This document shows positions 5,084-63,490 of a stretch of DNA of 64,000 nucleotides, one piece after another. Origin of the DNA: Naegleria gruberi. Its lineage: Eukaryota. Position 1 is the first letter of the stretch. Each line of letters begins with the position of its first letter. Where the stretch lies: NCBI GenBank assembly GCA_000004985.1, contig GG738886.1. One strand, written 5' to 3'. The position numbers and the translations under genes are program-made. Under the pieces are notes generated by a model. That model was not told where the DNA came from and did not search any database. It was given only the letters and a program-made list of their open reading frames with translations.

Positions 5084-5994
5084 ATGGGCAATAAACAATC
5101 TAACCATCATCATCACCAACAACAACAACAGTCTTCTTCCACGAGCACCTTCACACCAACAACTATTCCGGTTTCTAATGAAGAGGCCTACAGAAGAGAA
5201 ATGGAAATTTGTAGACAATACGAAATTGAAAGTAAGATGAGAGAAATGCATGAAGCCAAGTTTCATCAATATTCGGAAAATAAGGAGCCAGCATTGCAAA
5301 ATCTTCAATTGGTATTAATAATTGATCACTCTGGATCAATGGGTTCTTTTGGTAGGTTTTTTTTGTGAAATAATTTTTATTCTAATTGGAAACTGAACAA
5401 GATGAGGATGCAACAGGTCAAAATCGTTCCAAGGGCTTGGTTGATTCTAATCATTGGACACGTTATGATAATGTTATTCAAGCAGCTAAATATCTTTCTG
5501 AAAGTATATTTCAATATGATAAGGATGGAAAGGTACCACTTATTTTCTTTGATTCAAATGTTAGAGAAGTGATTGTTGACAGTATTCCAAGATTAGTTGC
5601 TGCATTTGAAAAAAATCAACCAAATTCAAGTACCAATTTATTAGGAGCTCTTGAATTAGCATTTAAAAATCATGTTAATGATCATGAAAATGTATTATTT
5701 ATTGTTTTCACAGATGGTAGTCCTAACGGAGGTCAAGAACCAAAAATCAAACAATTAATTCAAGACAAGTTGACCAAACCAGATCCTAATGGAAACAGAT
5801 TGAATATTTTATTTATTCGTCATGGTGATGATATCTCTGCAATTAATTTTTTGAAACATTTGGATGATTGTGAGGCAATTGGAAATAATGTTGACACCAA
5901 GTCAGATAATGCTATTTATGCTCTTGGACCAAAGAATTTAATTCTCAATTCTATATTTGAACATATGGATGCTGAATTTTTACAATATGTTTAA
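5084..5994 (+). CDS. N-myristoylation-motif vWA (copine-like, MIDAS DxSxS) protein, 2 exons
   Basis: The N-terminus MGNKQS is a myristoylation consensus. Exon 1 (5084..5351) ends ...LVLIIDHSGSMGSFG at a GTAGGT donor. A 50-nt intron (5352..5401) ends ..caag. Exon 2 (5402..5994) continues in frame as a vWA fold (TRYDNV...IVFTDGSPNGG). Confidence 0.7.
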
Positions 5995-9556: not shown

Positions 9557-11635
9557 TTATTCATCATCCTCAATATCTTCGATTTCTTCTTCTGTTTCTG
9601 TTGTCTTTTCAAGAGTTATCTTTTTCTTCTTTGGTTCAATATCACAACCAATAGATTTCAGTACAATTGAAACTTGATCGTATTTGATATGTCTAGAAAT
9701 TGTAATATTTCCCTTAAAACCAATGACAACAATGTTGTCATGAGAATCTTCATCTTCGTCTTTAATCTTAACTAAAACACCACCTGGTTCCATTTGTGAA
9801 ATTTTTTCAGCTTCTTCCTTTTGACCATTTTCTTCGAAAATCTTTGGTGAAACTTGAGGTTCAACTAAGAATTTGATAAAGTTTTCACGATTCAATTCAA
9901 TTTTTCTGTGTGAGTTAGTATTATCCCAGAGTAATGTTGCAGCTTCTTGTGTCATTCTATAACGACATCTCAAAAATTGAGCCTTATTTCTAGCAAAAAC
10001 TCTAATACCACAGTTGATAATGTTAAATTGTTGGCCATCATTCATGTTATGTTCAACAAATTTACGAACGGATGGAGAAATATACATAACTTTTCTGACA
10101 CTGTCAAGTTCTGTGGCACTGTCAGTAGTTCTAAGACAAAATTGTTCATTCTTGAAGTTATCTCTATTAACACCATAAAAATCAAGAATTTTTTCAAGTT
10201 TTTCTGGTTCCATAGATTGAATAGTATCCTTTTGAATACCTCTTCCCTTGAATTGTTTGATTGTTTCTTCAGTATTTTCATTATATTCAGAAATTGGTTC
10301 ATCCAAATCGGCAACCTTCTTAAAGTGAGCAATATAGAAACCACCAGTATTATTTTGATTTGGTAAAATTCTCATAGTGTAATGCATATTCATATCCTTA
10401 ACATCATCTTTAGCAAATTCACTTTCAGTAATTCTGTTATCAGAGTTATATTTACGGGCATATTCGAAAGATGGTAATAATTCTCCTTTCTTTGAAGTAA
10501 CAACCCAATTTGTCATACCTGGCTTGTACTTTAATGATGGGTATCTAGAAGATAAATCTTGTAAAACAAGCTTTCCCTTTGTTCTTCTAATAATTTCAGC
10601 AACTACAGCTTCATCTTCAATAGGATTTAATGTACATGTACTATATACAATTTCACCTCCAACATTTAACATATCAAAAGCTCTCAAAACACAATCAACT
10701 TGTAATTTGTGAAGACCATGACCCATATTTGCCTTCCATTGTCTCCAAACTTGTGGTGATTTTCTGATGGTACCATCTCCACTACACATGATATCACAGA
10801 GAACCTTATCAAATTTGAGTTTTGGTTCAGTAGTAAATTGTGGATACTTTGTAGCATCATGATTTGTAATCATCAAATGTGGGAATAAAAAGTTCAATCT
10901 TTGAAGTTGGTGAACTAATAAATAAGCTCTTTTAACATCATTATCATTGGCAATAACAAATCCCGAAATGTTCTTTGAATCTCCTCCACTACTTTGATAG
11001 AGTAATTCCACAAGTTGTGATGTTTTAGAACCTGGAGCAGCACACATATCAAGAACCTTATCAGATGGTTTCCAATTTGTAAACATCAATGGTGGTAACA
11101 TACTGACAACTTCTTGTCTACAGAAATTACCCTTTTCAGTTTCTCTCATTAAAAAATTTCTAAATTCAGAAAATTCTGGCTGTTTTCTTAATAAATTCTT
11201 TGTAACATGGTCATGCATTTGCCACACAAGATCATCAGGAATAAATGGAACAGGTTTTAAAGAGGCATATTCTGGTTCTGTTTCAACCTTTGATGGTTCA
11301 TGAAGATATTGAGAAACTGCACTGTCATCAATTCTGATTTTAGAAATAGCTTCAGCAAAATTCCTAATCTTTTGTTTTAATTTTTCTTGACTAGATTTTG
11401 GAATTGATTGATTAATTCTGAAAGAAATTGGTAAAGTTTTTCTAAAAGCATCCACCATATCCTTTAATTCCTCTTGTGAGTCAACAACTCTTTGTTGATC
11501 GAAATAATATTGTTCAAAAATTTTGTTTGTTTTTAAATCACCCTTTCTGGTCTTTTCCGGAACCCAAACATTCTTTGATTCTGTTGTTGTTGAAGATGAT
11601 GATGTTTCAGTAGTGGTAGTCGGTTGTTGGCTCAT
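9557..11635 (-). CDS. NSUN2: tRNA (cytosine-5)-methyltransferase, NOL1/NOP2/Sun family (NSUN2/Trm4-like)
   Basis: Contains DMCAAPGSKT (SAM-binding motif), DKVLCDIMCSGDGTIRK (motif IV Cys) and IVYSTCTLNPIEDEAVV (motif VI Cys), 692 aa. Confidence 0.85.
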   Translation of the reverse strand: MSQQPTTTTETSSSSTTTESKNVWVPEKTRKGDLKTNKIFEQYYFDQQRVVDSQEELKDMVDAFRKTLPISFRINQSIPKSSQEKLKQKIRNFAEAISKIRIDDSAVSQYLHEPSKVETEPEYASLKPVPFIPDDLVWQMHDHVTKNLLRKQPEFSEFRNFLMRETEKGNFCRQEVVSMLPPLMFTNWKPSDKVLDMCAAPGSKTSQLVELLYQSSGGDSKNISGFVIANDNDVKRAYLLVHQLQRLNFLFPHLMITNHDATKYPQFTTEPKLKFDKVLCDIMCSGDGTIRKSPQVWRQWKANMGHGLHKLQVDCVLRAFDMLNVGGEIVYSTCTLNPIEDEAVVAEIIRRTKGKLVLQDLSSRYPSLKYKPGMTNWVVTSKKGELLPSFEYARKYNSDNRITESEFAKDDVKDMNMHYTMRILPNQNNTGGFYIAHFKKVADLDEPISEYNENTEETIKQFKGRGIQKDTIQSMEPEKLEKILDFYGVNRDNFKNEQFCLRTTDSATELDSVRKVMYISPSVRKFVEHNMNDGQQFNIINCGIRVFARNKAQFLRCRYRMTQEAATLLWDNTNSHRKIELNRENFIKFLVEPQVSPKIFEENGQKEEAEKISQMEPGGVLVKIKDEDEDSHDNIVVIGFKGNITISRHIKYDQVSIVLKSIGCDIEPKKKKITLEKTTETEEEIEDIEDDE

Positions 11636-11759: not shown

Positions 11760-12110
11760 AGAGAATGCCATGCAACCCTCGCCAGTAGTCTGAATTGTGT
11801 TACAGCCCAGTGAGCTGTGTTGTACATCTAACTAAACTTTTGCGGTGTCATCCCAGCCGTTTCAATTGAGAGTTTCCTCCCAAGCCCATTTCTGGTTCTG
11901 GGATATTAGCATTATTGATTTACCAACCTCACTTCTCGTGAGTAAACAACACCTCAGACCTTCCCAGGAGTTATGGTTAATGTGAGTGTTCTTACTTGTT
12001 TAAAGTAATCTCGTATGTATTCTCCTCAATACGTCCAAGCTCAAGATGCAAGCAGACCCCGAAGATTAAATGTAATTTGCATCCTTGTGAAAGATTGGAT
12101 ATTTTTTAGG
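11760..12110. other. GC-elevated ORF-free island (candidate ncRNA gene or regulatory element)
   Basis: About 45% GC against roughly 30% around it, with no ORF in any frame. It contains gctcaagatgcaagcagacc, which matches 17 of 20 positions with a motif in the 21850-22500 island. Confidence 0.25.
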
Positions 12111-18132: not shown

Positions 18133-18232
18133 TTTTTTGTTGGATAAAGTTCGTTTGAACTTGGTACTTTTACAAATTACAAGATAAGGTTATTGTATTA
18201 TATAATCATAGAAAAATCCAAAATGAACACCA

Positions 18233-18315
18233 GCCCGCGTAGCAGAGTGGTCAAATGCGTAAGACTTAAGATCTTATCCCGAATGGGTTCGTGGGTTCGA
18301 ACCCCACCGCTGGCA
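18233..18315 (+). tRNA. tRNA-Leu(UAA)-like, long variable arm, one C.U mismatch in acceptor stem
   Basis: GCCCGCG-T-AGCAGAGTGGTCAAATGCG-TAAGACTTAAGATCTTA-variable arm-GTGGGTTCGAACCCCAC-CGCTGGC-A followed by TTTCCTTTT. The architecture parallels eukaryotic tRNA-Leu. Confidence 0.6.
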
Positions 18316-18446
18316 TTTCCTTTTACCTTTGACAGAAAGAAATGGAACTTGAGACTTAATGTATCTTATATGATGTCTATTGACCAGAATTAATATTTTA
18401 AAGTTCCATTCTAACAATTTACAAATTAATTTCCAAAGATAAAAAA

Positions 18447-19595
18447 ATGGGTCAATCACAACCTCAGAAAATTGCACCACCACCACCTGTTTGCTCCTCA
18501 TCTACATCATCATCTTCAATGCCTTTCATTAATTCGGATCGTGTTGAACAACTTAAAAAATCATCTCTCATCAACAAGTTGGCAAATCCTAAAATGTTTC
18601 CAAACAAGATTTTTCATGATTTAATCGAATCAAAAAGTGATCTGAAGAGTGTTGAGAAATATGCAGTTTATAATTATGAAAATTGTTCAATTTTTGAAAA
18701 GGAATTGCCAGATGAATTATTTATTTGTATTTTGGGATTTTTAATGAATCATGAACTTTTCAAATTACAACGAGTTTCCAAAAATTTCAAATATTATTGG
18801 ACTCAAAATAGTTTTTTATGGAGAGGAAGATTGTTGGATGATTACAATAAGATTTTCATGTATTTTAAACCAATTATGCAATCACCAAACAATAGTATTG
18901 TATATTATCATCACTTTATACAAACAATTTTAAGTTCGTACAAAGAAAAATCAGATGTACCCAACTCTATGATTTGTAAACAAGTTTTAATGGGAATGGA
19001 TCAATGTGGTAAATCTGAACTAGCTAAATTATTTTCAGATTCAACAAGATTATTTGATTCAAAATATTCTCGAACCATTGGAGTTGAGTTTTATTCAAAA
19101 GGTTATGAGTATAATAATAATTTACATTGCAAAATTCAATTATGGGATACTGGTGGACATGCAAGGTTTCAATCAATTGCATCAGCCTATAAAAGAGGTT
19201 CCAAGACTATCATTTATTGCTTTGATTTGAGTGATGAAGAGTCTTTTGATCGAATGAAGGAACTTATTGACAATAATAGTGAAAAACCTCAAAATACTCC
19301 TTGGAATGATTATTTACAATGTGAAAGGTTAAGTATGATAATTATTGGATTGAAGAGAGATTTAGTAAGAAAGGTGAAAATGAGTCGAATTGAAAATCTC
19401 CTCCAACAGTTTGTACCCATTATTGATGGTATTTCATTGAAAGATTTGAAAGTTCAATATTTTGAGCTAAGTTGTAAAACTGATGCCAGATGTTACATTC
19501 AATTCCCTCTATTATTTGGATTATTGATGAGTGAGGAAGTAATGATTGAGGATGCATCTATTGACAAGAAGGTAATGGCGGAAATAAAAACTTGA
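18447..19595 (+). CDS. F-box + Rab-like small GTPase (catalytic Gln to His)
   Basis: F-box LPDELFICILGFLMNHELFKLQRVSKNF. P-loop GMDQCGKSEL, switch I YSRTIGVEF, WDTGGHARF in place of WDTAGQE, and GLKRD in place of NKxD. Confidence 0.65.
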   Translation: MGQSQPQKIAPPPPVCSSSTSSSSMPFINSDRVEQLKKSSLINKLANPKMFPNKIFHDLIESKSDLKSVEKYAVYNYENCSIFEKELPDELFICILGFLMNHELFKLQRVSKNFKYYWTQNSFLWRGRLLDDYNKIFMYFKPIMQSPNNSIVYYHHFIQTILSSYKEKSDVPNSMICKQVLMGMDQCGKSELAKLFSDSTRLFDSKYSRTIGVEFYSKGYEYNNNLHCKIQLWDTGGHARFQSIASAYKRGSKTIIYCFDLSDEESFDRMKELIDNNSEKPQNTPWNDYLQCERLSMIIIGLKRDLVRKVKMSRIENLLQQFVPIIDGISLKDLKVQYFELSCKTDARCYIQFPLLFGLLMSEEVMIEDASIDKKVMAEIKT

Positions 19596-19604
19596 TGAGC
19601 ACCA

Positions 19605-19687
19605 GCCCGCGTAGCAGAGTGGTCAAATGCGTAAGACTTAAGATCTTATCCCGAATGGGTTCGTGGGTTCGAACCCCACCGCTGGCA
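19605..19687 (+). tRNA. second identical copy of tRNA-Leu(UAA)-like gene
   Basis: Identical 83-nt sequence plus about 8 nt upstream and about 37 nt downstream flank shared with the copy at 18233. Confidence 0.6.
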
Positions 19688-19796
19688 TTTCCTTTTTCTT
19701 TGCCAGAAAGAAATGGAACTTGATCGAATATATTGCTAAATAATTGCTTTTATATTCAATTTTTGAAATGCAAGTGTGAAAATCCATTCCAAAAAA

Positions 19797-24019: not shown

Positions 24020-25813
24020 ATGGGTCAAAACATTCATGCTCCACGTGTTTTCATTTCCTCTAACGAAAAGCAAGGAGACGAATATGTAATTAGTGGAAAC
24101 CTTTCGAATAACAGTTCAACACCAACTAATCTCCACAGTCATAATGTATTTGATGATGCACATTCTAATGGATTATCTCCACCTCATCCTTCTGGTCAAG
24201 CTCCTTTAATTATTGTTGGAGGTTCTTCAAGTGGCAGTAGTAGTGGAGGTGATGAAATAGTTTCGTCTCCTTTCCATTCACCTCGTTCTCCAAAATTTGT
24301 TAGAAATCATGACGATGTAATATTTGACAATCTTTCTGATTCTTCCTATTCTACTTCTCCACAAAATTCACCGAAACTAACCTCAAGAACCAAGAGAATG
24401 AGCTCTGGTCCAAACTACTCACCAAAACTTGAAAATTTTAGAAAGACTCAACAGCAACAAACTAAACAACCAACTGTTTGGTTTTCTTCTGTTTCTAATG
24501 AATCTGATTGGATGGACCATTCGAATAGATTTGCTCATACCAAAAAGCAAAAAATGGTTCTCATGTTAAGTTATGGAGTAAATACTCATTCTGAAGATTT
24601 ATTTCAATATTGGTTTCAGAGATTTTTACCAAAAAGTGAAGAAACACAAACCAAAAGCAAGATTATGCAATTGTGTGCTTTATATTTGAGAAGATTGTGT
24701 TTTGCATATGTAAATAGAAGTTGTTCATCTCAATTAATTCAAGAATGTTCTACATCAACTTGTTCTAATGAAGGTGTTGATCAGATGGTGGACTATTCGA
24801 AAACATTGAAAAGGTTTGATTCATGGTCATTATCACCACTCACTAGAGAAGAAACATTTTCACATGATGATTTCATCAATGAACTCATTGACATGTTAGT
24901 TAACAATGATGAATCATTTATTTTACAATCACTTGGTCATTGGAATGCAAATATTCTCACAAATATGGAATTGTTATGGAAGAGTGAGGCTATTCAACGT
25001 GCAGCCTCTAAATTAGTTGAACAGCAGGTTTACATGGATGAGAAAGTTTATGCAGAGTACTTTTTAAATTCCATTCCTCACTTATTAGATTCTAGTTACA
25101 ATTTAACAGTTTCAGATTTATCGAATGCACAGAGACGTAAATTCAAAATTAATGAAATTAAGATTGTCGATCAGGGAAATTATGATTGTCTCTATTCAGT
25201 ATTGGATATTTCAAGTATGGGAGGAGAAAAGACGAAGTGGTTGAGATCATTCAATAACGTTGATGGATTTTTAATGATTTTTTCACTAGATGAGATAGCT
25301 CAAGACAAATCAGTCCTTCAGAAATCTTTGCATTCCTTCAGAGAAATGACTAGTTACTTCTTTGGAAATAATCAGCAACAAAATGGATGTAAAACTCAAA
25401 TCTATGTATGCTTTTCCAATGTTGCTGAATTCTGCAAATTGGTCAAATCAGAAGAATTACCACTTCAACATTCACTCAAAGGAGATGTCAAGAATCCTTC
25501 CATAGTTTTCAAATATATAGTTTCCCAATTCATGGCCAGTAATGGCAGTTGTTCCAATAATTTAACAGAGAGAAATCCAACAAGTTCTCAAAACATTTCC
25601 TTCTATGCCATTGATAGTTTCTCAGACTATTATTCAATGTACGAATTTACGAGTTATTTACTTGAGGGAAGAAATTATTTCAGTGAACTGATAACAGGTG
25701 CTAAGGAGAAGAGAGAAGTATCGAGGAGAGGTGAATTGTTTTCCATGTGCAAATTGAGTCATGATGATAAATTGAAAAGGAAATTGATAGATATTTCATT
25801 TAACTTTGAGTAA
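24020..25813 (+). CDS. G-alpha-like protein with degenerate GTPase motifs and Ser-rich N-terminal extension
   Basis: The C-terminal 350 aa align to the G-alpha helical and Ras-like domains (LWKSEAIQ vs LWKDSGVQ; LYSVLDISSMGGEKTKWLRSFNNVDGFLMIFSLDE vs [36 protein letters not shown]). The P-loop, DVGGQ and NKxD motifs are not conserved. Confidence 0.6.
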   Translation: MGQNIHAPRVFISSNEKQGDEYVISGNLSNNSSTPTNLHSHNVFDDAHSNGLSPPHPSGQAPLIIVGGSSSGSSSGGDEIVSSPFHSPRSPKFVRNHDDVIFDNLSDSSYSTSPQNSPKLTSRTKRMSSGPNYSPKLENFRKTQQQQTKQPTVWFSSVSNESDWMDHSNRFAHTKKQKMVLMLSYGVNTHSEDLFQYWFQRFLPKSEETQTKSKIMQLCALYLRRLCFAYVNRSCSSQLIQECSTSTCSNEGVDQMVDYSKTLKRFDSWSLSPLTREETFSHDDFINELIDMLVNNDESFILQSLGHWNANILTNMELLWKSEAIQRAASKLVEQQVYMDEKVYAEYFLNSIPHLLDSSYNLTVSDLSNAQRRKFKINEIKIVDQGNYDCLYSVLDISSMGGEKTKWLRSFNNVDGFLMIFSLDEIAQDKSVLQKSLHSFREMTSYFFGNNQQQNGCKTQIYVCFSNVAEFCKLVKSEELPLQHSLKGDVKNPSIVFKYIVSQFMASNGSCSNNLTERNPTSSQNISFYAIDSFSDYYSMYEFTSYLLEGRNYFSELITGAKEKREVSRRGELFSMCKLSHDDKLKRKLIDISFNFE

Positions 25814-28811: not shown

Positions 28812-30845
28812 TTATAAAGATTTCTTTTCCAAATCAACTCCACAGTAATATTTACAATAATCGTAGAGGATCTTGGCAAGATAATTGGAGGAGAATGATG
28901 GCATTGGATTTCCCTTCTCTTTGGCTTCTTTTACAGCTTTGAGAATGCCATTATAATTGTCCATACAGAGCTTTTTGGATGAAATTGGATTGGTAAAGAC
29001 GAATTTCTTATTGAGGAAACCACCAAGGTTACAAGTTCTAGCTTCAACATAACGAGTTCTGTACTTGTCAACCATGTTGTAAATTCTGGAACCAACAAAT
29101 GGACACTTGATCAAATCCTTGATTTCTTCATTCTTGACGAAATCACTTGATTTGAATAGGAAGGCGTTTTCAATAAGTTTCTCACCATGGAAATGAGATT
29201 TGCTTGAAAATACAAATTGAACTCCTCTCAATGAGAATAGCGGACCAAAATCAAACTTGGAAGTCATAATTACAGCTGGATACTTTTGAATGGAGCTTGC
29301 AGCATTAATTGGAGTATAGTAATGCCATTGGACATTGTGGAAACAATATTCAAGATGACTATCAAAGTGTGTAGATTTCACAACGTCATTAATTGGATGA
29401 TCAAAATAACCAACAATCTTGGAATTTCTCAATTCTAAATTATCTCTGGAGTGATCTTCATCTGAATTCCATTGCATTACATTTGGCAATTTGGAATAGG
29501 TTAAATACCAATCACCACCATGTTCCCTACACATCCAATTTGAAAAGTTCCAATCACTGTCAATAACATGCTTGATATTCAAATCTTCATTATTGAACTT
29601 GAATTCTCTGTTGGCCTTCTCATTCTTCTCCTTCTTCTTTCTATAGATTTCAACAACATATTTTGGAAGATTTCCATCAACCAAACCATTCTCAAACCAC
29701 TTCCTGACCTTCTTGTTTTGTTTAAATTCAAAGATTGCAAACCAATCACCCAATTCTAATAGGAACATGTTACAAATGAGTTTAATTTCATCAAGCAGAC
29801 CAACAGTGAATCTATTCTCCTCAGAGATGGTTCCTCCAGTGCTATGAACCAACTCTTCCTTAGAGAGAAGTGCATGTTTTGGATCTTTACAATTCACACT
29901 TTGAGCTTGTAAGAATTCTCTCAAGTACACGTGTCTGAATAGTGGAGTATGATCCAATTGACTTGGTAGATACTTTAAATAGAACCATACCTTATCTGGT
30001 GATTCACTTTTAAGCTTTTCAATTTCAACAGATTCGTATGGCATCTTTAAAGCAATCAAAACTTTACAAAACAAATCCAATCGACTGAAAACAGCTTCAC
30101 TCGATTTGAAAACCTTTGATGGAACTTTCTCATTAATTGGATCAAAGAAATGTTCCAAAAACATCAACTTGATCTCAAATTCATTTGCCATCTTTGCTTG
30201 ATCTTCACAATAATCAAGGAATTTGTGTTTCAAATTTTCAATAATTTCATCACTGTTAGTTTTTGGAACTGGTTGATCTTGATAGTAAAAGTTTTGATGA
30301 TAATATGGTACAGAACTGTTGTGAGTGGTATTTAGTGGATTGGCTTGACAGTTATTTGGTGAGATACTCAAGTTATTTGGATTAGGTTGAGCATTGTTTG
30401 GATCTTGTAAACTGGAGAATGAATCAGACGAATCTGAATGGCCAGATTCAGAAGAATCGTATAGATTCGAACCAACAATACTTGTTGGTGTGGTACATTC
30501 AGCTGAATTTAAACTACCAGAACTGTTTCCATACATATTTATGAAATACTCCTTATCAGTGGAGCCAATTGATGAAGTACTATTGTTGACAGGACTTCCA
30601 GGTGAATTTCCAGTACCATGATTAGTGACATTTAGAAATAAATTGCTAGAGGAAGTATCTTTTGATTTGGAACTACCTGATGAGCTAGTAGAAACTGCAC
30701 ATGAACTTAAATTAGTTGAGTTATTCAAAAGATTTGCATATACCACACGTGGGTTGAGTAGAATGGTGACTGGAAGGATGAGTGGTTGTTTGTTTGGAGT
30801 TAGTTGAGTAGTTTCGTTTTTGGTGGATTTTCTGTTGTTGGCCAT
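28812..30845 (-). CDS. START-like lipid-binding domain protein with Ser-rich N-terminus (paralog A)
   Basis: The C-terminal 330 aa are paralogous to 40503..43109 (KWFENGL...EIYRK...HVIDSDW...LTYS...FSLRGVQFVFSSKS...NLGGFLNKKFVFTNPISSKK). Confidence 0.6.
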   Translation of the reverse strand: MANNRKSTKNETTQLTPNKQPLILPVTILLNPRVVYANLLNNSTNLSSCAVSTSSSGSSKSKDTSSSNLFLNVTNHGTGNSPGSPVNNSTSSIGSTDKEYFINMYGNSSGSLNSAECTTPTSIVGSNLYDSSESGHSDSSDSFSSLQDPNNAQPNPNNLSISPNNCQANPLNTTHNSSVPYYHQNFYYQDQPVPKTNSDEIIENLKHKFLDYCEDQAKMANEFEIKLMFLEHFFDPINEKVPSKVFKSSEAVFSRLDLFCKVLIALKMPYESVEIEKLKSESPDKVWFYLKYLPSQLDHTPLFRHVYLREFLQAQSVNCKDPKHALLSKEELVHSTGGTISEENRFTVGLLDEIKLICNMFLLELGDWFAIFEFKQNKKVRKWFENGLVDGNLPKYVVEIYRKKKEKNEKANREFKFNNEDLNIKHVIDSDWNFSNWMCREHGGDWYLTYSKLPNVMQWNSDEDHSRDNLELRNSKIVGYFDHPINDVVKSTHFDSHLEYCFHNVQWHYYTPINAASSIQKYPAVIMTSKFDFGPLFSLRGVQFVFSSKSHFHGEKLIENAFLFKSSDFVKNEEIKDLIKCPFVGSRIYNMVDKYRTRYVEARTCNLGGFLNKKFVFTNPISSKKLCMDNYNGILKAVKEAKEKGNPMPSFSSNYLAKILYDYCKYYCGVDLEKKSL

Positions 30846-32031
30846 TGTTTGTTGTTTTTTTTGTGATATTTTGTTTTGTAGTGAGGTGGTTTAGTTTCGA
30901 ATAATGAATAAGTTGGATAATCTGCCATAGTATCATTTGAGCTTTATTCGAAACAATTAAATATTGTTTATTAAAGAGTTTATTTTCTAAATTGTAAAGT
31001 AATAATACTAAAATAGTAAAAGTTACGGTAACGGATTTGAAAAAATATTTCTTTATTCGAAACCAAAAAACAATCAAATTCCAAAAATTCTACTTTTAGG
31101 AAGGCAGTTAATGAAATTGGAAGAAACAGCCGTTGTTTCTAAAAAGTGTAATATGGTTGTATTATTCTTGGCTTCATACAAAATGAAAGTAATCTTCATT
31201 TCGAATATTATCTCGTGAAATATGAAATGGGTTAATGATCGAGCACTTGTGCTATCCTAACACCTTTTCGAATACAATGAAACTAAATTGGGATTTGTGA
31301 GGATTATATAGACCCCCTCAATTTCTAGTTCATCACCATGTTAAATTATATCACATTGTTGTATTAAGGAAACAATCTTCAGCAACACTTATAAAATGGT
31401 TTTCTGCAAAAATCATAAATTACAACTGATTCCAATAAATTACCCAACATTTCAGACTTAATTCTTTCCTTCTTGTTATATCTTAGTACTCCACGTAAAA
31501 TTTGTTGTAGTGGCTTTATATCACAAGTATTTTCGTATACTTTGACGCCCTCAATTCTTTTTTCAATATCACCTTCGACACATCCATCTAAAATATGTAA
31601 ACAAAACATTCCAAATGAGTATAAATCCGATTCTTGAGAGTAATCAATACCTTCTATCATCTCTGGAGGGATATATGAATCCATTGTACCAGCAACTGTC
31701 TGAATTTCGCTGCCATCACCCAAGTTACTCAATGACATGAAGGCTAATTTCCAAATACCGTTGTCATTGATAATATTTGAAAAATCCAAACACGTGTAAA
31801 CCAAGTTGTGACGATGTAGGAAACAAAATGTCTGTCCTACTCTTTTAATTAATGATATTCTATCATTTGGGATCATTTTGGACAAGTAGTAATTGCTTAA
31901 TGAGTCTCCATTTGGTGTCTCAATAATAAAATCGCCAGATTCACGAATTATTTTACATTGAATTGGTACGTATAAATCATTTCCTAAGTTTGTTCTTCAT
32001 TTTACATTAATGAGATAATTCATAACAAAAC

Positions 32032-35000
32032 TTACAACTGAAAGTATAAAGATTCAAACAAATAATCATCTGGAAAACTAATAAATATTGGAGAGGTATT
32101 TCTTTCAACGTATCTTTCATGTAAAATCAAATATGAAACCACATAAAGTCGTTTGAGATCTATTAAATCAAGGTCAGGTAGTAAGTGAGTTGCTAGTGGA
32201 ATAGTATCAGGGCTCAACAAGGAAATTATTTGGTTGCAATTACAACCAATGACCAACTCTAATGCATAGTGATAACATGGTGCTATCGATTTGTCATTAT
32301 CATCTAATAAAAATAGAACACTTACTGGAATAATATGCATGGGTTTTGATGATTGTTGAAATAAAATCCACGTCCCTGATTTCGTAACCACTCATCAACT
32401 CAGAGTTTCTAGAAATCTTACATACTACTTCAATATTTCCAATTACGACTTCTCCAAATTTTAAATTGACTTCATCTTCATTTATATTTTCCAAAAAGTC
32501 TTCACAAAATTCCCACACTATTTCGACATATTTCTCAATATCAGAAGCATGGGATAGTTCTTTACAACTAAAAACTGTTGCTACAATATTATTATTTCCT
32601 TGAATCAATAAAAGTTCGTGGATGTTTTGAAGATTTCCTTTCACTAACAGGATCATCTTGACATTATGATTTGCTTCAATTTGTTTAGGAGAAAATGACA
32701 CTATCTGAAACAATTTTGACTTCATTTCCTGAATAATAATATCCCAGTTATCTGGTCGGTGTTCTTCTTCTCTTGCAGTGCATCTATGACATAAGTTGCT
32801 AAATTCTTGATCAATACCACAATATTCTAACAATTTTCCAAATGAATAAATATCGCACTTATAAGTATATAAACCTCCTTCTGCTACTTGTGGAGATCTG
32901 AAAAAGGTTGTACCTCCAGATGAATTGTCTTCTCCAAGACATATTTTACCGAATCCAAAATCTACAAGTGTAACTACATTCGATGATATCATAATATTTT
33001 TTGCTGAGATGTCTCGATGAACAATATTAAAAGCGTGAACCTTTTTAAGAGCATCAGCTATTTGAATGAGTATTTTGATTTTCTGAAAACGGCTTGGGTT
33101 TGTTTGATTCCATTCTGCCAAGTTTTGGTCTAATTCGTCTTGAATGATATAGATTGTGTTGTTTTCGTCTCGTAATATTGTTTCCACTTGGGCAAGCTCT
33201 TTAAGTTTATACTTAATATTGAGAAATCTTTACATGTTGGTGATTACAAAAGAATTAAAATACTTACATTAGTATAAAAACTTCTCTGTAAAACGGATAA
33301 TCTTGCTTAGCCCTGGGTATTACCTTTACAACCTTATTTTGGTTGTTCCAAAATATTCTATAAACGGTGCCATAAGCTCCCGATCCAATCGGGTTTGTTA
33401 GCTCGGGTAATTTATCTTTGTAAAATACCTTATTAGCAAAGAAATAGGTTTCAACATAATTTTTCATCAATTCATCTAAGTCTGAAATGTTGAATGGTAT
33501 TTCATTATTGCCAATATCTGTGGCACCAGAGGCTTTCAGAATATTGAAAGCTACCATTCTCTCTTGATATTCTCGATCAATAATAGACTCTGCCAACGTT
33601 TTCATCTTGCTCAACATGATATCCGGAAATAATCTCACTACAGAGTCGATTTGATGATCAATATCATCTTTTCCTACTTTCTTTTTCCTCTCTCCATTCC
33701 CGAAATGAGGCTGTTTAAGCTGGAAAAGGAGGCTGAAAAATCCTCCAATATTTCTTATTTTAGAAGAAATAGTTGATTCCCAAAATCCAAAATTAGTCAA
33801 TTTGGATCTTTCGATAATATCATTCTTTTGATCTACTGGATTAGGGAGTTCATTTTTGGGATTTGCAAAATCATAATGCAAGAAATCTCCAAGCTTAGTA
33901 AGGAAAAGCAATTGAATAGATTGAATATTAACTAATCTCAGAAGTAAACAATTCACTACTCTTGAAACTACTCTTTCATTGTATTCTCCCACATCCAATA
34001 TATCTTCAAAGTAAAGTTTGTCTTTGATATCAGAAGAAATTATATGACTATTCGCAATCTTTTTCTTAAACTTTTCACTATTAACAACCATAAACTTTTC
34101 AATTTGTTGGAAAAGCTTATTCTTGGAAATATTGATATCCTCAATTGATTTCTCTTCTATGATTGTTGTTATAATATTGTTCAAGACCTCCAATATTCTA
34201 GTGGAGTAATATTGTGGGAAATCTTGTAATTTTTGAAGGACTAATAGAAGAAGGTGTTCTTGAAATTCGAAAAATTCGCAATCTGGTATTTGGTTCCTTT
34301 TCATTTTGGATTCTAGAGCATTCTTTGCTGATATTCTAAATGAAGGAATATCTCCAAAATACTCTATTACTTGTGTTTGATGGTATTTTTTATACCTTTC
34401 AACGTTACTTTTGTCTTGTTCTTTGTCTACCATATTGTAAAGAATAATGTTAGGTTCAATGTTTTTTTCTTTAAGAATGGACAATATATTCTAAGAAAAT
34501 TAATGAAATCTGTTGGAGAATACTTACTCGATCTGGATATTGAATGTTTGTAAAATCAACAACACAAATGACGACATCTGAGTTTTCAACAAATTCCAAA
34601 GTGTTTGAATCTATTGCCTCACAATTCTTTTGATTTATGCCAGCAGTATCACATAGATTAATATCAAGTTGTAATAATTCATATCCTGGAAGCTGAATGC
34701 TGAATATCTTTTGTTCAAATTCGTCATTCAAATCCTCACTGAAATCTGAATCGAAATTAGCATCACTAGAAAAGCTTTGTTCGTCTAGCTCAGTAACTCG
34801 TTCAAGTTGTTGGGATAGACGATAATACTCCACCTTGTTACCATTCTCACAAATAATAACTCCACTAGTTGATGGTAAAACATCAGAGTGTAGAACTAGT
34901 CCTCCAAGAATACTGTTGATAACAGTTGATTTACCTACTGATGAGCCTCCCACAAGTGTAATTTTGAAAGTGGAGTCCAACGGTTTTTTAAATGTCAATA

Positions 35001-35592
35001 AATGTTGAATGACATTATTAAAATTATACAACTGATTCGTAATTTCGATCAAGCTTTCTTTAGAGGTTCTCCACTGCGCCATCTCTCCTCTAATTAACTC
35101 ATAATGAACGCTCAATTTGTCCCAAAACTTAGTGACAATAATCTCTCTTAACTTGATATCGGATGCAATGTTCAAAGCCTCTTTGTGTCTTCCTTGCAAT
35201 GATAAACATACAGCATATAAAGGTTCTAAAATTGATTCATTCCCATTATTAGACATAGACTTAATAGTATTAAGCGCATCTATTCAAGTGTAAAATTAGT
35301 ATCTCAAAAACAACCTACTTTTGCTCCATTCAATTTCATCTGTTAGAAAACCAGGATCCAAGTCTATAAAAGATGCAAGATAACGCTTAATGTTACTGGT
35401 GTCAATTGTATTCACTTGTTCTGAGGGATTCAACTTCAAAAAGTCCAAACATCTAGAACAATAAAATCCAGAGCTTGAGCCAACAACGTGACTGCCCAGT
35501 AAATCACAACATTTACACCAACGGCAACAAGGCGTTAAACGTTCATGGCATAGGCTTACTGCAAAGTTAATAATGTCAAGTGTTGATACCAT
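32032..35592 (-). CDS. 5-exon gene: Cys-rich N-terminal domain + AIG1/GIMAP-type GTPase + Ser/Thr protein kinase (about 1133 aa)
   Basis: Exons 35592..35319, 35279..34528, 34490..33268, 33227..32326 and 32282..32032. Introns of 39, 37, 40 and 43 nt use GTAGGT, GTAAGT, GTAAGT and GTAAGT donors with ..AG acceptors, and all phases are consistent. GTPase motifs ITLVGGSSVGKSTVINSILG and DTAG. Kinase motifs GSGAYGTVY, VVKVI, HRDISAKNIM and DFGFGK. Confidence 0.7.
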
Positions 35593-36244
35593 TTTTTTGA
35601 TTTGTTTAATTGAGTGCTATTGGCAATTAGTGATAACCTTGCTTGTTATGAAAGCTTGAAATCACGTTTGGATATTTATGGCAAGCAGGGTAGAATTTAC
35701 AAAATAACCAAACGTGATCACTCTACAGTAATTTTGAAAATAAATTGTAGATGATCACTCTACGGTTGGTATTAAATATTAATATTGAATAATGCACTTT
35801 AAATTGAAAGTCGTAAAATGGAATCCTTTAGACAATTTAATTATCGGAATGCAATGGAATTTTAAAAATTCACAACATTTTTTAAAAAGCACTCGGCAAA
35901 ACAACGCGTCTGCATTTCCATTTATTTTTTTATCAAATTTCAACACCGCTTAATGTTTTGAAGCTTCATAACATTTTCACCACCTCACCTCAGGCTTTAC
36001 AAGACATTATTAAATATTAATAATTTGTACTGTTGGTTTTGATAAGCGATACAATTAATTGGCTAATATTTTTCTTTAAAGGCCACCATTCTAACATGTA
36101 ACATCCCTCCGGAGTCTTTTAGCTACTATATTTTATAAAGATTTGGATAGTGTTACCAGAAACGAACAGTATCTCTCATGGCAATGAATCCAAACTAATC
36201 TTGGACAGTGCCTTGAACAAAGCCCCAACAATTACCACAAAAAA

Positions 36245-37392
36245 ATGTTTCTATCATTCAACAAGCCCTCTGCACTTTCGTCTACTTTCGAATCAAACAA
36301 TGCCAGCTCTATTGTTTTCACAATGACTGACTTTGATGATTTAATTTACTCGGCAATTGATCAATCCTTCTCCTTCTTCTTTATGGCAACTTTTATTTTA
36401 CTAATTTTACTAATTGTTGGATTTTCCATAAAAAGCGATTGGAAAACATTAAAAAAAAGTCAAAAAAATATAATTTTAATGATTTTGACATTGTTGACAA
36501 CTCAAATGATTGGACTGTCAGGGAGAACAAGTTATAATTTTATTGACATTTCAATTTTGACAAGATATGAAAATTATTTAACTGAGAATGGATATACAGA
36601 GAATGATCAACTGTATATTGATGTAATTGTGAATGGAAATGACACTTATTTGACAACTGACATGGTGGGAATACCTTATGCAGATGTAGTTGGATTATTT
36701 CTCTCCAAGTCAATTGAGGCATTTTTCATTTTATTTGGATTAGTGATAATTAACATGGTTTTACATTACATTTCACATTTATTCTTTAATTTAATCAAAT
36801 ATTCACAAGGAGTTTTGAAATCGAATAGAACTAGAGTTATTCGAATGATTTTTGACACTGTCATGTTTATTACTTATTTCTTTTACTTTTTATTATTGAC
36901 TGCCATATTTATATTATTACTCATTGAGAATTTGAAGATAATTCATAACATCCAGTTAATTTTCTTTATCATTTCATTTGTTTTATTTGTTTTCCAATTG
37001 CTTTCTCAAACAATATTTTCATTGGTAAGTAATTTATTCCTACTTTCGTATAAAAATTATTGAAATAGATTGTAGCCATGATAGTTCTTTCAATTATTAA
37101 TCAATCAAGAAAGAAATTCAAAGATCAAACAAATTATTCATGGAAACAACCAATTGTGAAAATTGTAATTTTACAAGCAATTATGATATTTTCATGTTTT
37201 ATTCAAATTATTGCGATTGGATTTGGAGTTGTCATTTCTGCTTGGAATAATTCAGCATTGATTTATGACTTTTTAAATAATTTGGGAGTTTTGATATTTT
37301 CTATATTGGTATTGTGTTTGTATCATCCTTCGTTTGACTTTTTTAAGAATGAGAATGTTCGAATGAGGCTTAATTGTCAAAGTTTAGAATAA
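36245..37392 (+). CDS. multi-pass membrane protein, 2 exons (about 367 aa)
   Basis: Exon 1 (36245..37024) ends at TTG|GTAAGTAAT. A 44-nt intron (37025..37068) precedes exon 2 (37069..37392), in frame. Confidence 0.55.
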
Positions 37393-37406
37393 AATGAGAG
37401 ATTTCC

Positions 37407-39242
37407 TTAATGTAAATGGAATGTTCCACCTCCATATGCATAATTCATTCTCTCACGCAACAGAATATCAAATTCCTCTTGACTATTGATGTGTGAAAAG
37501 TCAGCAATCAATCCATGATATTTAAGAGCTGCCATTCGATACTCTTCATCATGATTCAAATCAATAGCCAAATAAAACGCAGGGGATAATTTCAATGCCT
37601 TCATAACAAACTCTCTATTTTCTATCAGATTCTTTGGAATTTGTTGATAGGAGAATTTGTATTGATTCACTTTCATGGACGAAAGCAAAATTTCTTCATT
37701 GTCTGTAAGAAAGTTTGGAACTTGAGTGAAAACTACCTTTCTTTGCAATATCAAGTCAGCGATCTTCTGTTTGAAATCCAAATCTGAAACAAGTGATTCT
37801 GCTAGACTAATATTTGTGAAATTACCGAGGTCTATAACTTTCAAAACGAAATCCTTATCATTCTTGAAGAATGGAAAATATTCAATGCAATTCTGATTTA
37901 CCATAACACATTCCATAGCAAACTGACTGTCTTTTAACAAATCTTCCTTTGCAAATCTCATTAAAGAAGCATCATTTCGAATAACTTCCAAAATTCCCTT
38001 TCTATCATTTTGTTTGAACAACAATTCGAAATCTTTTCGTTTGTTTGGTTTTTTCACTTCCTCTTCTTCAATAAACTCATCATTCTCTTCATAATTACCC
38101 ACCATAAACATGTCATTTGAATCGTCTTCCAATTGTAAACTTTCTGATTTTTCATTTTCTTTAAAATTCTCAAAACTTTCATCCTTAATTAGTTCAGCAG
38201 GAATGTAAGGAAGAATTTTACAATCATGATTGAGTGCTTTCAATATAAATTGCTTATTATTTCTCAATTCTGATTGTTCAAGTAAGCTTGGATCATGTTG
38301 CAAACAGTTCAATAAGATTTCTTCATCATTGTTTCTAATACTTTCAGATAGATATCTGAAAGCTAAATAATTAATTTTCACTAATTGAAGGCAAAAATCT
38401 CTATCTTGCAATAAATCTATACCTTTAACATGATCCAGGAGGGTTATGTTGACTGGAGCAATTGCCAAAATTATTTCTCTATCTTTCTTCAATTCGTCTT
38501 TCATATTTGAATTCGAATAGACATTCACATTTCTTTTAATTGCTTCTAAAACCACATGTTTATCCTTAAAAAGATAAGAAAGTGAAGTGTTGTAATGCTG
38601 AACTAGATATTCTACAGCTATTTCAGGATATCTTTCGAATACAGATTCTTCCAAAGTTATTGAATCTGATTTGACAGCTGCCATAATAATTTCAGGATCA
38701 TTTTTCAAATCCTCACTAGCATACAGATAAGCCCACCCATCATTCTTCACAGCAGATAAAACAATTCTCTTGTCTGATTGACATTCCTCTGACAGAAACG
38801 CCAAATGTCTTCCTTGAAATTGAACGAGCATGTGAGCAATGTCAAGATCTGATTTAGAAGTTTCTGAGGATTGAAGGAGAGGATCGCAGAACCATTCCTT
38901 GAATGCCAGTTCGAATAATGATTTTCTGTTCAAAATAAATGGTAAATCTCTGACAAGATTCGAATATTTTGGACGAATTGATTTCATTGCTTGAATCACC
39001 AAATAATCATCAAATAAGAATTCAATAGGAAGAAAGTTGACTTGCAACAGTGAATTTGAAACTCTTCTCTCACGTTGTTCTTTAATATATTTCACTTTAG
39101 CTTCAATCCATTTCGAATAACCTTTTCCCAGTTGCGTAAACTTTTCTTTCAACTTTATCCGAAAGGAATTTTGATTATTTGATAGATAAAACGGTTCTTC
39201 CACCAGAATGAGAATGCACTGCTGCTCATGATCTTGTGACAT
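37407..39242 (-). CDS. DUF4116 repeat-containing protein
   Basis: Repeated modules of about 30 aa of the form ...KNDxEIVLAAVKxDGxAL.YASEDLKNDPEII.... Confidence 0.6.
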   Translation of the reverse strand: MSQDHEQQCILILVEEPFYLSNNQNSFRIKLKEKFTQLGKGYSKWIEAKVKYIKEQRERRVSNSLLQVNFLPIEFLFDDYLVIQAMKSIRPKYSNLVRDLPFILNRKSLFELAFKEWFCDPLLQSSETSKSDLDIAHMLVQFQGRHLAFLSEECQSDKRIVLSAVKNDGWAYLYASEDLKNDPEIIMAAVKSDSITLEESVFERYPEIAVEYLVQHYNTSLSYLFKDKHVVLEAIKRNVNVYSNSNMKDELKKDREIILAIAPVNITLLDHVKGIDLLQDRDFCLQLVKINYLAFRYLSESIRNNDEEILLNCLQHDPSLLEQSELRNNKQFILKALNHDCKILPYIPAELIKDESFENFKENEKSESLQLEDDSNDMFMVGNYEENDEFIEEEEVKKPNKRKDFELLFKQNDRKGILEVIRNDASLMRFAKEDLLKDSQFAMECVMVNQNCIEYFPFFKNDKDFVLKVIDLGNFTNISLAESLVSDLDFKQKIADLILQRKVVFTQVPNFLTDNEEILLSSMKVNQYKFSYQQIPKNLIENREFVMKALKLSPAFYLAIDLNHDEEYRMAALKYHGLIADFSHINSQEEFDILLRERMNYAYGGGTFHLH

Positions 39243-61015: not shown

Positions 61016-61133
61016 GGCTACGGCCATATCACGATGAATGCACCTCATCCCGTCCGATTTGAGAAGTTAAGCATCGTCGAGCCACATCAGTACTGAGGTT
61101 GGAGACAACTTGGGAACCTGTGGTGCTGTAGTC
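61016..61133 (+). rRNA. 5S rRNA
   Basis: GGCTACGGCCATATCACGATGAATGCACCTCATCCCGTCCGATTTGAGAAGTTAAGCATCGTCGAGCCACATCAGTACTGAGGTTGGAGACAACTTGGGAACCTGTGGTGCTGTAGTC plus TTTT; the termini pair as helix I. Confidence 0.9.
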
Positions 61134-61289
61134 TTTTAATCTTAGATAAATCAACAGGATTCAAATTGTGCGTATTGAGCTTGAGAGGTTATAAATAACA
61201 TTATGAACTATTGTAAATATTGTGTGAATGATTTAGGTTTTATTTACAATGATTTGCCTAGGTTTACAACATTTTGAGTTAAATGGAGA

Positions 61290-62340: not shown

Positions 62341-62616
62341 TTTCCAATAATCACCTTTTAAATTCAAAACCATTAAGAGTCAAATTGCATTCAATTCACG
62401 AACAACAAGTTAAAATTCATTATTGCATGTACAGCTTAAGCAATACTTACTAAACATGAACCAAATTTGTGTCCAGAAACAAAAATCGGTTCATTGAAAG
62501 AATTTCTTTGCAGAAGAACTACTTTCTAAAAATATATACATCTCAAAACAATATAAAAAGCAAGGAACTGTTTTGAATTCAAGAAAAACAATAAGAAAAA
62601 CAAGACAACAAACACA

Positions 62617-63075
62617 ATGCAATTATTTGTCAAGACACTCACTGGAAGAACTATCACTTTGGAGGTTGAATCTAATGATTCAATTGAAAACGTGAAAAGA
62701 AAAGTACAAGATAAGGAAGGAATTTCACCAGATCAACAAAGACTCATCTTTGCTGGGAAACAATTGGAAGATGGCAGAACTATTAATGATTACAACATTC
62801 AAAAAGATTCAACTCTTCATTTGGTGTTGAGATTAAGAGGAGGAATGCAACTTTTTGTAAAAACTTTAACTGGAAAGACAATCACTATTGAAATGGAATC
62901 GAATGATACTGTTGAGAATATGAAACAAAAGATATTTGATAAGGAAGGTATTCCTTCAGATCAACAACGATTGATTTATGCCGGTAAGCAATTGGAAGAT
63001 GGAAGAACTATTGGTGATTACAATCTTCAAAAGGATTCAACTGTGCATTTAGTATTGAGATTGAGAGGTGGTTAA
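62617..63075 (+). CDS. divergent di-ubiquitin (two non-identical 76-aa repeats, ends GG-stop)
   Basis: [19 protein letters not shown]...LRLRGG followed by [19 protein letters not shown]...LRLRGG. K6, K27, K29, K33, K48 and K63 are retained, but each repeat differs from canonical ubiquitin at many positions. Confidence 0.85.
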
Positions 63076-63300: not shown

Positions 63301-63418
63301 GGCTACGGCCATATCACGATGAATGCACCTCATCCCGTCCGATTTGAGAAGTTAAGCATCGTAGAGCCACATCAGTACTGAGGTTGGAGACAACTTGGGA
63401 ACCTGTGGTGCTGTAGTC
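63301..63418 (+). rRNA. 5S rRNA (second copy)
   Basis: Identical to 61016..61133 except one substitution (cgtAgagcc), followed by a T-run. Confidence 0.9.
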
Positions 63419-63490
63419 TTTTTACCTTGGATAAATCAATAGGATCACTTAAATATCGTTAATGGATTAATTTATTAGAACATGGATACC

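Follow-up and report, generated by a model that had tools for sequence, protein, structure and literature searches.

In a 64,000-nucleotide (nt) stretch of the Naegleria gruberi genome (contig GG738886.1 of GenBank assembly GCA_000004985.1; the window, hereafter, is this whole stretch), the minus strand between positions 35592 and 31379 is best explained, in our view and with reasonable though far from full confidence, by a six-exon gene encoding a multidomain signalling protein of 1,337 amino acids (aa) that would act as a GTPase-gated kinase. The predicted product contains, in this order, a Cys cluster, a helical segment, a GTPase domain, a linker of ~300 aa, a protein kinase domain, a second linker of ~200 aa, a pseudokinase domain and a C-terminal -CC. 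Judged by its sequence, it combines known domains in a new way, as a GTPase-kinase signalling fusion.

Gene structure and splicing

An earlier reading of this DNA, made from the letters alone (referred to below as the sequence-only reading), had joined five open reading frame (ORF) pieces into one gene by means of four short introns. The five long ORFs are present as described, in succession and in differing frames, at 35616-32035 on the minus strand. At the frame breaks there are donors of the form GTAGGT (at 35318) or GTAAGT (at 34527, 33267 and 32325), and an AG located 39, 37, 40 and 43 nt further on restores the frame exactly. The placement of these rare donors goes far beyond chance, and the four introns hold. 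In fact, the hexamer GTA[AG]GT has only 32 copies on the two strands of the 64-kb window, of which five fall exactly at the ORF breaks of the fusion gene (including a fifth break, described below). GTAAGT itself was observed 18 times against ~44 copies expected from base composition (both strands, 128 kb), a scarcity consistent with the avoidance of cryptic donors. Many of the GTAAGT copies in the window fall at predicted intron starts.

The coding character of the pieces was assessed in two ways. At the local base composition, the chance probability of open frames of 250-408 codons is 1e-9 to 1e-14, and with a codon-usage table derived from confirmed neighbouring genes all six exons score best in the proposed frame, at levels like those of control genes. 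A scan of the window for the same arrangement (a strong donor, a short gap and an AG, with long open frames on both sides) returned few other cases, 40-50 nt in length and with the same signals. Applied to the neighbouring 5352-5401 interval (50 nt, GTAGGT..AAG), the splice rule yields a 286-aa protein identical to the public entry EFC41288.1, and since the rule reproduces this entry exactly, the intron class is genuine in the N. gruberi genome. A TAAT-type motif, likely to be the branch site, is located 8-19 nt before the acceptor AG in all five introns of the preferred model, which has a coding sequence of 4,014 nt, introns of 37-43 nt and the following features (all on the minus strand):

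35319-35592, minus: exon 1; ATG at 35592-35590, residues 1-91 and one base of codon 92; from the ORF and splice model; codon usage favours the proposed frame, though less strongly than in the other five exons
35280-35318, minus: intron 1; 39 nt, GTAGGT...TACTAAT...AATAG, phase 1, with an in-frame stop inside
34528-35279, minus: exon 2; residues 92-342, helical region and GTPase motifs G1-G3 (GGSSVGKS 202-209, switch-I T229, DTAG 302-305)
34491-34527, minus: intron 2; 37 nt, GTAAGT...CATTAAT...CTTAG, phase 0, interrupting the GTPase domain
33268-34490, minus: exon 3; residues 343-750, a single 408-codon ORF with G4 (NMVD 361-364), the ~300-aa linker and the kinase N-lobe (GSGAYG 711-716, K731, E745)
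33228-33267, minus: intron 3; 40 nt, GTAAGT...GTAAAG, phase 2, interrupting the kinase domain
32326-33227, minus: exon 4; residues 751-1050, kinase C-lobe (HRDISAKN 820-827, DFG 839-841, DIYSFG 875-880) and the start of the second linker
32283-32325, minus: intron 4; 43 nt preferred, GTAAGT...CGATAG, phase 1, with 22- and 67-nt acceptors also in frame
32036-32282, minus: exon 5; residues 1051-1132 and two bases of codon 1133, no domain assigned, codon usage fitting
31995-32035, minus: intron 5; 41 nt, GTAAGT...CATTAAT...TGAAG, phase 2, with TAA 32034-32032 within the donor
31379-31994, minus: exon 6; residues 1133-1337, pseudokinase C-lobe 1155-1311, -KCC end, stop TGA 31381-31379

Two of the junctions are independently supported, because domain matches cross them: the Pfam MMR_HSR1 match (residues 197-361) and the alignment with mitofusin-2 (196-395) both span the exon 2/3 junction, and the Pfam Pkinase match at 708-883 spans the exon 3/4 junction. 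No domain match crosses the junctions of introns 1, 4 or 5, which makes intron 4 the least certain of the four introns of the sequence-only reading. Its 43-nt version is preferred because the other introns of the window measure 37-50 nt; the 22-nt version, rejected here, would be shorter than all of them. The fusion of GTPase and kinase does not depend on splicing at all, since the G4 motif, the linker and the kinase N-lobe share the uninterrupted 408-codon ORF of exon 3, and the claim of one gene joining a GTPase to a protein kinase is thus upheld.

Class of the GTPase domain

A Pfam scan of the spliced product returned Pkinase (E = 2.4e-34, in two stretches), Dynamin_N (E = 3.5e-11) and MMR_HSR1. 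The motifs G1 to G4 of the GTPase are intact, and the distance from T229 to D302 is 73 residues, a switch I-G3 gap typical of large GTPases. Dynamin_N scores 43.8 bits with the whole protein and 47.1 bits with the GTPase segment alone (cut-off 27), over positions 1-140 of the 168 in the profile. The top match among solved structures is BDLP of Nostoc (2j68, E = 1e-4), with which the G1-to-G3 part aligns with hardly any gaps (residues 189-332 against 63-208, that is 144 against 146 residues), followed by mitofusin-2 (E = 0.014), in which NRWD pairs with the G4 NMVD. The dynamin-like PADLOC models LeoA (E = 1e-6) and LeoBC (E = 1.5e-5, residues 148-373) match as well.

These matches bear directly on the sequence-only reading, which had labelled the domain as an AIG1/GIMAP-type GTPase and, from the immune association of that family, suggested a signalling or defence module. 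The label has to be given up: AIG1 (PF04548) reaches 16.6 bits, under its cut-off of 27, and covers only 29 P-loop residues (profile positions 2-30 of 212), as compared with 47.1 bits for Dynamin_N, and GIMAP4 (E = 0.34, P-loop alone) is outranked by both BDLP and mitofusin-2. Therefore the argument for defence from an immunity-associated GTPase loses its basis, and a defence role stays a possibility by loose analogy only, with dynamin-like defence GTPases, LeoA and LeoBC being among the weak matches. The Roc profile of Pfam likewise stays under its cut-off (19.4 bits against 27) and touches the P-loop only.

An alternative that we consider unlikely would place the GTPase with Era/Der/TrmE (MMR_HSR1), or among the other small TRAFAC GTPases, and make the long region after it an unrelated linker. 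MMR_HSR1 does score 42.3 bits on the GTPase segment (cut-off 21.9), Era and Der typically have the G3 sequence DTAG(I), the NCBIfam Der model matches residues 297-400, and two Leptospira Der GTPases were the sole database matches to the N-terminal 708 aa. On the other hand, Dynamin_N is better by both measures, score and E-value, and its match extends over G1-G3 with the long G2-G3 insert, BDLP and mitofusin-2 outrank all small GTPases among solved structures, and the LeoA/LeoBC matches point in the same direction. Overall, a dynamin-superfamily GTPase of the bacterial-dynamin/mitofusin/LeoA type is the best supported assignment, rather than a certain one, because of the Era/Der form of G3 and the partial match of Der-type models.

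The kinase, the sixth exon and the pseudokinase

The kinase claimed by the sequence-only reading is a real protein kinase domain (the Pkinase match quoted above). Its motif set is complete, comprising GSGAYG 711-716, K731, E745, HRD 820-822, N827 and DFG 839-841 (with D822 and D839), and with all catalytic residues kept the domain is predicted to be active. Its closest solved relatives are Src, EGFR and LRRK2, at ~1e-13 to 1e-12 (LRRK2 at E ~2e-12).

The same reading had ended the gene at the TAA at 32034-32032, and here it missed an exon. This TAA belongs to a fifth GTAAGT donor at 32035, from which an AAG acceptor 41 nt further on leads in frame to an exon of 204 codons whose last base is 31379; an open frame of this length has a chance probability of 1e-7, and downstream of the TGA all frames are closed. 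A 52-nt version of intron 5 with a TAG acceptor at 31984, checked by hand, was rejected, as a TGA follows immediately. The sixth exon encodes a further Pkinase match (E = 2.9e-11, residues 1155-1311, profile positions 75-232 of 263) with an unrecognisable N-lobe. In an alignment with Aurora A that extends over the catalytic and activation segments, YTC (1199-1201) stands in place of HRD and FMS (1218-1220) in place of DFG; both catalytic aspartates being gone, we classify the domain as a pseudokinase. It is distantly related to the kinase of the same gene (E = 3e-5).

Could the gene nevertheless end at the TAA, as a five-exon gene for 1,133 aa, leaving exon 6 as a kinase fragment that is separate or has decayed? 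With intron 5 retained, translation would stop at this in-frame TAA, and no domain match spans the exon 5/6 junction (the Pfam match starts from residue 1155). We nonetheless regard this as very unlikely. The stop lies within a perfect copy of a hexamer that occurs just 18 times in 128 kb, the frame is restored exactly into a long ORF of gene-like codon usage, and this ORF holds only the C-terminal two-thirds of a kinase fold, beginning at profile position 75 after 22 codons, with neither an ATG ahead of it nor an N-lobe of its own, which makes it implausible as a separate gene. Moreover, the 1,133-aa product is absent from the public protein collection just as the longer one is.

A variant to which we give very little credence would have both isoforms made, with retention of intron 5 yielding 1,133 aa without the pseudokinase, splicing yielding 1,337 aa, and the stop in the donor acting as a switch. 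Retention would indeed read a single base of intron 5 (TTG, then TAA) and add nothing past Leu1133. This is pure inference, however, as in an AT-rich genome many GTAAGT donors give a TAA in some phase, possibly without any meaning. The six-exon model, with the stop inside the intron, is retained here; more generally, entire domains can go missing from Naegleria gene models that take a TAA within a GTAAGT donor as their end.

N-terminus, linkers and protein ends

The cysteine-rich N-terminus, described in the sequence-only reading as zinc-finger-like, is upheld as a Cys cluster. Eight cysteines (C15, C22, C23, C26, C28, C29, C45 and C48; 35449-35550, minus strand) are packed into the 34 residues from 15 to 48, an enrichment with P ~5e-4 after scanning the whole protein, and the zinc-finger identity is a matter of the Cys pattern, without a Pfam or PDB match. 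There are two CxxC pairs (C23/C26 and C45/C48), 18 residues apart, plus further CC pairs, and the cluster could serve either zinc binding or lipidation. Together with the -KCC end (31379-31390), this CC/CxCC-rich cluster could provide lipid-attachment sites, instead of or besides zinc ligands. The N-terminal 190 residues, as well as residues 400-700 and 930-1150, have no match in Pfam or PDB. The ~300-aa linker is probably helical.

Relatives and conservation

Our searches for relatives covered several very large collections. A word-index search of a 5.8-billion-cluster collection with residues 1-708 returned two Leptospira Der GTPases and no Naegleria protein; with the C-terminal 638 aa (residues 700-1337) it returned only generic kinases at E of 1e-10 or weaker, again with no Naegleria protein. 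Residues 343-700 were also run through an exhaustive HMMER search (1.84 billion representatives, E threshold 0.001), which gave zero matches, not even to the protein itself. No related locus was found in scans of JGI metagenome contigs and viral contigs, and there are no paralogues within the window. The architecture is unusual, with no relative elsewhere in the collections searched. Searches of open-access papers turned up neither a protein, from Naegleria or any other organism, in which a dynamin-type GTPase is joined to a protein kinase, nor relevant work on intron statistics in Naegleria. N. lovaniensis and other close relatives were recovered for the NSUN2-like neighbour, at 64-71% identity. 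As relatives surface for the neighbour only, the family-specific parts of the fusion gene are either very fast-evolving or confined to N. gruberi.

This pattern raises the question whether the fusion is young and lineage-specific, and either without function or in decay, with no selected role. It would account for a linker devoid of a detectable orthologue among 1.84 billion representatives when another Naegleria species does surface for the neighbouring gene, as well as for the orphan sequence of the N-terminus and both linkers. What makes it very unlikely is the state of the gene: all six exons are open, over 4,014 coding nt in DNA of 32% GC, the splice signals are all intact, so are the catalytic motifs of the GTPase and of the first kinase, and codon usage is gene-like.

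Locus and neighbouring genes

The window, nuclear DNA of the amoeboflagellate N. gruberi, is gene-dense, with a GC content of 29-36%, and also contains genes for nuclear RNase P RNA, 5S rRNA and tRNAs. The neighbouring ORF at 9557-11635 (minus), an NSUN2-like methyltransferase, shows 100% identity with an N. gruberi predicted protein, and five further ORFs of the window are exact N. gruberi entries of GenBank, UniProt or EukProt. The minus-strand genes on the two sides of the fusion gene are EFC41368 and EFC41370 (EukProt P006183 and P006185). An exact look-up in the public protein collection returned no entry for the 1,337-aa model or for the 1,133-aa one, and an accession-based search of papers gave no match. 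As the numbering of the two flanking entries leaves exactly one slot between them, a public model for the locus is probable (EFC41369), and we therefore make no claim that the gene is unannotated. In a contig look-up with neighbouring ORFs, two were unrecorded, and a third was found on short ENA/Logan contigs that end 77 nt before the intergenic region.

The divergent intergenic region upstream of the fusion gene is 650 nt long. It carries repeats at 35661-35766, comprising a 15-nt direct repeat, TGATCACTCTAC(A/G)GT, at 35715 and 35752, and a 17-nt inverted repeat at 35661-35677 and 35702-35718. The repeats may be promoter elements common to the fusion gene and the plus-strand gene at 36245. 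The latter (36245-37600) resembles a multi-pass membrane protein and has a predicted 44-nt intron at 37025-37068 (GTAAGT..ATAG); its spliced 367-aa model is absent from the public collection, so that any public model there differs. On the other side, an uninterrupted 677-codon ORF at 28812-30845 (minus) corresponds to the 300-aa public model EFC41368. An ENA/Logan assembly (run ERR1078381) contains the full ORF at 100% identity, which suggests a possible truncation of the public model and shows that the metagenome sample contains N. gruberi-identical DNA.

Further features of the window are:

61016-61134 and 63301-63419, plus: two 5S rRNA genes, inside 162-nt direct repeats 2,285 nt apart
62616-63071: between the 5S rRNA genes, a 228-nt unit in tandem duplicate (77% identity)
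11778-12039, minus: gene for nuclear RNase P RNA (66.8 bits with Rfam); the NSUN2-like gene (9557-11635, minus) starts ~140 nt away
18223-18329 and 19595-19701, plus: two tRNA-Leu(UAA) genes, in 107-nt direct repeats (97% identical)
18447-19595, plus: 382-codon ORF flanked by the tRNA-Leu(UAA) repeats
24020-25813, plus: 597-aa protein with a weak partial G-alpha match (E = 8e-14), labelled publicly as 'predicted protein' only
37407-39242, minus: 611-aa protein of DUF4116 repeats (E = 2e-53), likewise labelled 'predicted protein' only

Proposed mechanism

Dynamin-superfamily G domains hydrolyse GTP by mutual pairing and assemble on membranes. By extension, the dynamin-like G domains of the predicted protein would pair and assemble in a GTP-dependent manner, probably at a membrane, the assembly would bring the kinase domains together, and the kinases would thereby be switched on, with the pseudokinase as an internal regulatory partner as in other tandem-kinase proteins. 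The outcome would be a kinase gated by its own GTPase, as in ROCO/LRRK2 proteins, but with a GTPase of another class.

Several points weigh against this explanation. The mechanism is inferred, and the only grounds for coupling the GTPase to the kinase are their covalent linkage and analogy. All junctions are predicted in silico, and the searches returned no homologue that could show conserved junctions or architecture. The evidence for a dynamin-class GTPase is modest (E = 1e-4 against PDB, with MMR_HSR1 close behind at 42 bits), and G3 has the Era/Der form DTAG, not the DxPG of dynamins. In the first kinase, the APE motif reads SPQ. Without an alignment, AlphaFold2 modelled residues 92-190 and 343-700 largely as helices, with predicted local distance difference test (pLDDT) scores too low for use (48 in exon 2, 36 in exon 3), and no sequence match to any stalk was found; a Foldseek search with the low-pLDDT exon-2 model returned noise only. 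Finally, there is no clear transmembrane segment, the Kyte-Doolittle maximum being 1.6 at residues 520-538.

Few proteins combine a GTPase switch with a kinase, and those that do, chiefly LRRK2 and the rest of the ROCO family, have taught a great deal. If a kinase is indeed wired to a dynamin-type GTPase here, the 'GTP-gated kinase' would have evolved at least two times on unrelated GTPase scaffolds, and the N. gruberi protein would offer a compact system for asking how the assembly of a large GTPase reads out as phosphorylation. For a protein without detectable relatives, the reach of these implications is limited to one species for now. Naegleria is rich in one-off multidomain signalling proteins.

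A bolder version, which we rate as distinctly unlikely, would see in the protein an undescribed class of self-contained signalling machine, in which a membrane-remodelling GTPase of the dynamin/mitofusin/LeoA type directly gates the kinase and pseudokinase attached to it, perhaps so as to sense, cell-autonomously, membranes that are damaged or invaded. N. gruberi is a free-living amoeba and prey to giant viruses and intracellular bacteria. Such a sensor would parallel, in one chain, both the dynamin-like defence GTPases (Mx, GBP and IRG in animals; Eleos/LeoA in bacteria) and the plant tandem-kinase immune receptors.

Comparison with known systems

The AIG1/GIMAP family shares with the N. gruberi GTPase a P-loop of the same broad TRAFAC class, as reflected in the sub-threshold 29-residue match, and differs from it in the absence of any match past G1, in a G2-G3 distance that is short in AIG1 as compared with ~73 residues here, and in G4, which is NMVD in our protein.

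With BDLP of Nostoc, the mitofusins (MFN1/2, Fzo1) and LeoA/LeoBC, the likeness is more extensive. It includes a Dynamin_N match above the cut-off, a G1-to-G3 spacing equal to that of BDLP, the hydrophobic strand 'LPxxxLL..i.l.D(T/S)xG' before G3, an N-x-x-D G4 that aligns with the NRWD of MFN2 and a long, probably helical region after the G domain. On the other hand, G3 is DTAG instead of DSPG, no transmembrane or paddle segment was found, and the stalk is putative. We know of no member of the BDLP/mitofusin/Leo family with a protein kinase, and our searches of the open-access literature returned none.

Tandem kinase-pseudokinase proteins are known from the JAK family and from plant tandem-kinase resistance proteins such as WTK1/Yr15. 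Like them, the N. gruberi protein would combine an active and a degenerate kinase in one chain. It differs in having the kinase first and the pseudokinase second, with a 200-aa spacer between them and a GTPase module upstream, and no sequence relationship was found past the generic kinase fold.

The ROCO proteins (LRRK2, Dictyostelium Roco/GbpC and DAPK1) are alike in having a GTPase and a kinase in one polypeptide, with a linker (dimerising in ROCO) between the two. The GTPase of the fusion gene is not a Ras-like Roc, a pseudokinase is added, and a Pfam search at E up to 10 gave no match to a COR domain; leucine-rich, ankyrin and WD40 repeats were undetected. Membership of the ROCO family thus fails for lack of a Roc above the cut-off and of a COR. 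LRRK2 is among the closest solved relatives of the kinase, and ROCO offers the closest functional parallel to a kinase under the control of its own GTPase.

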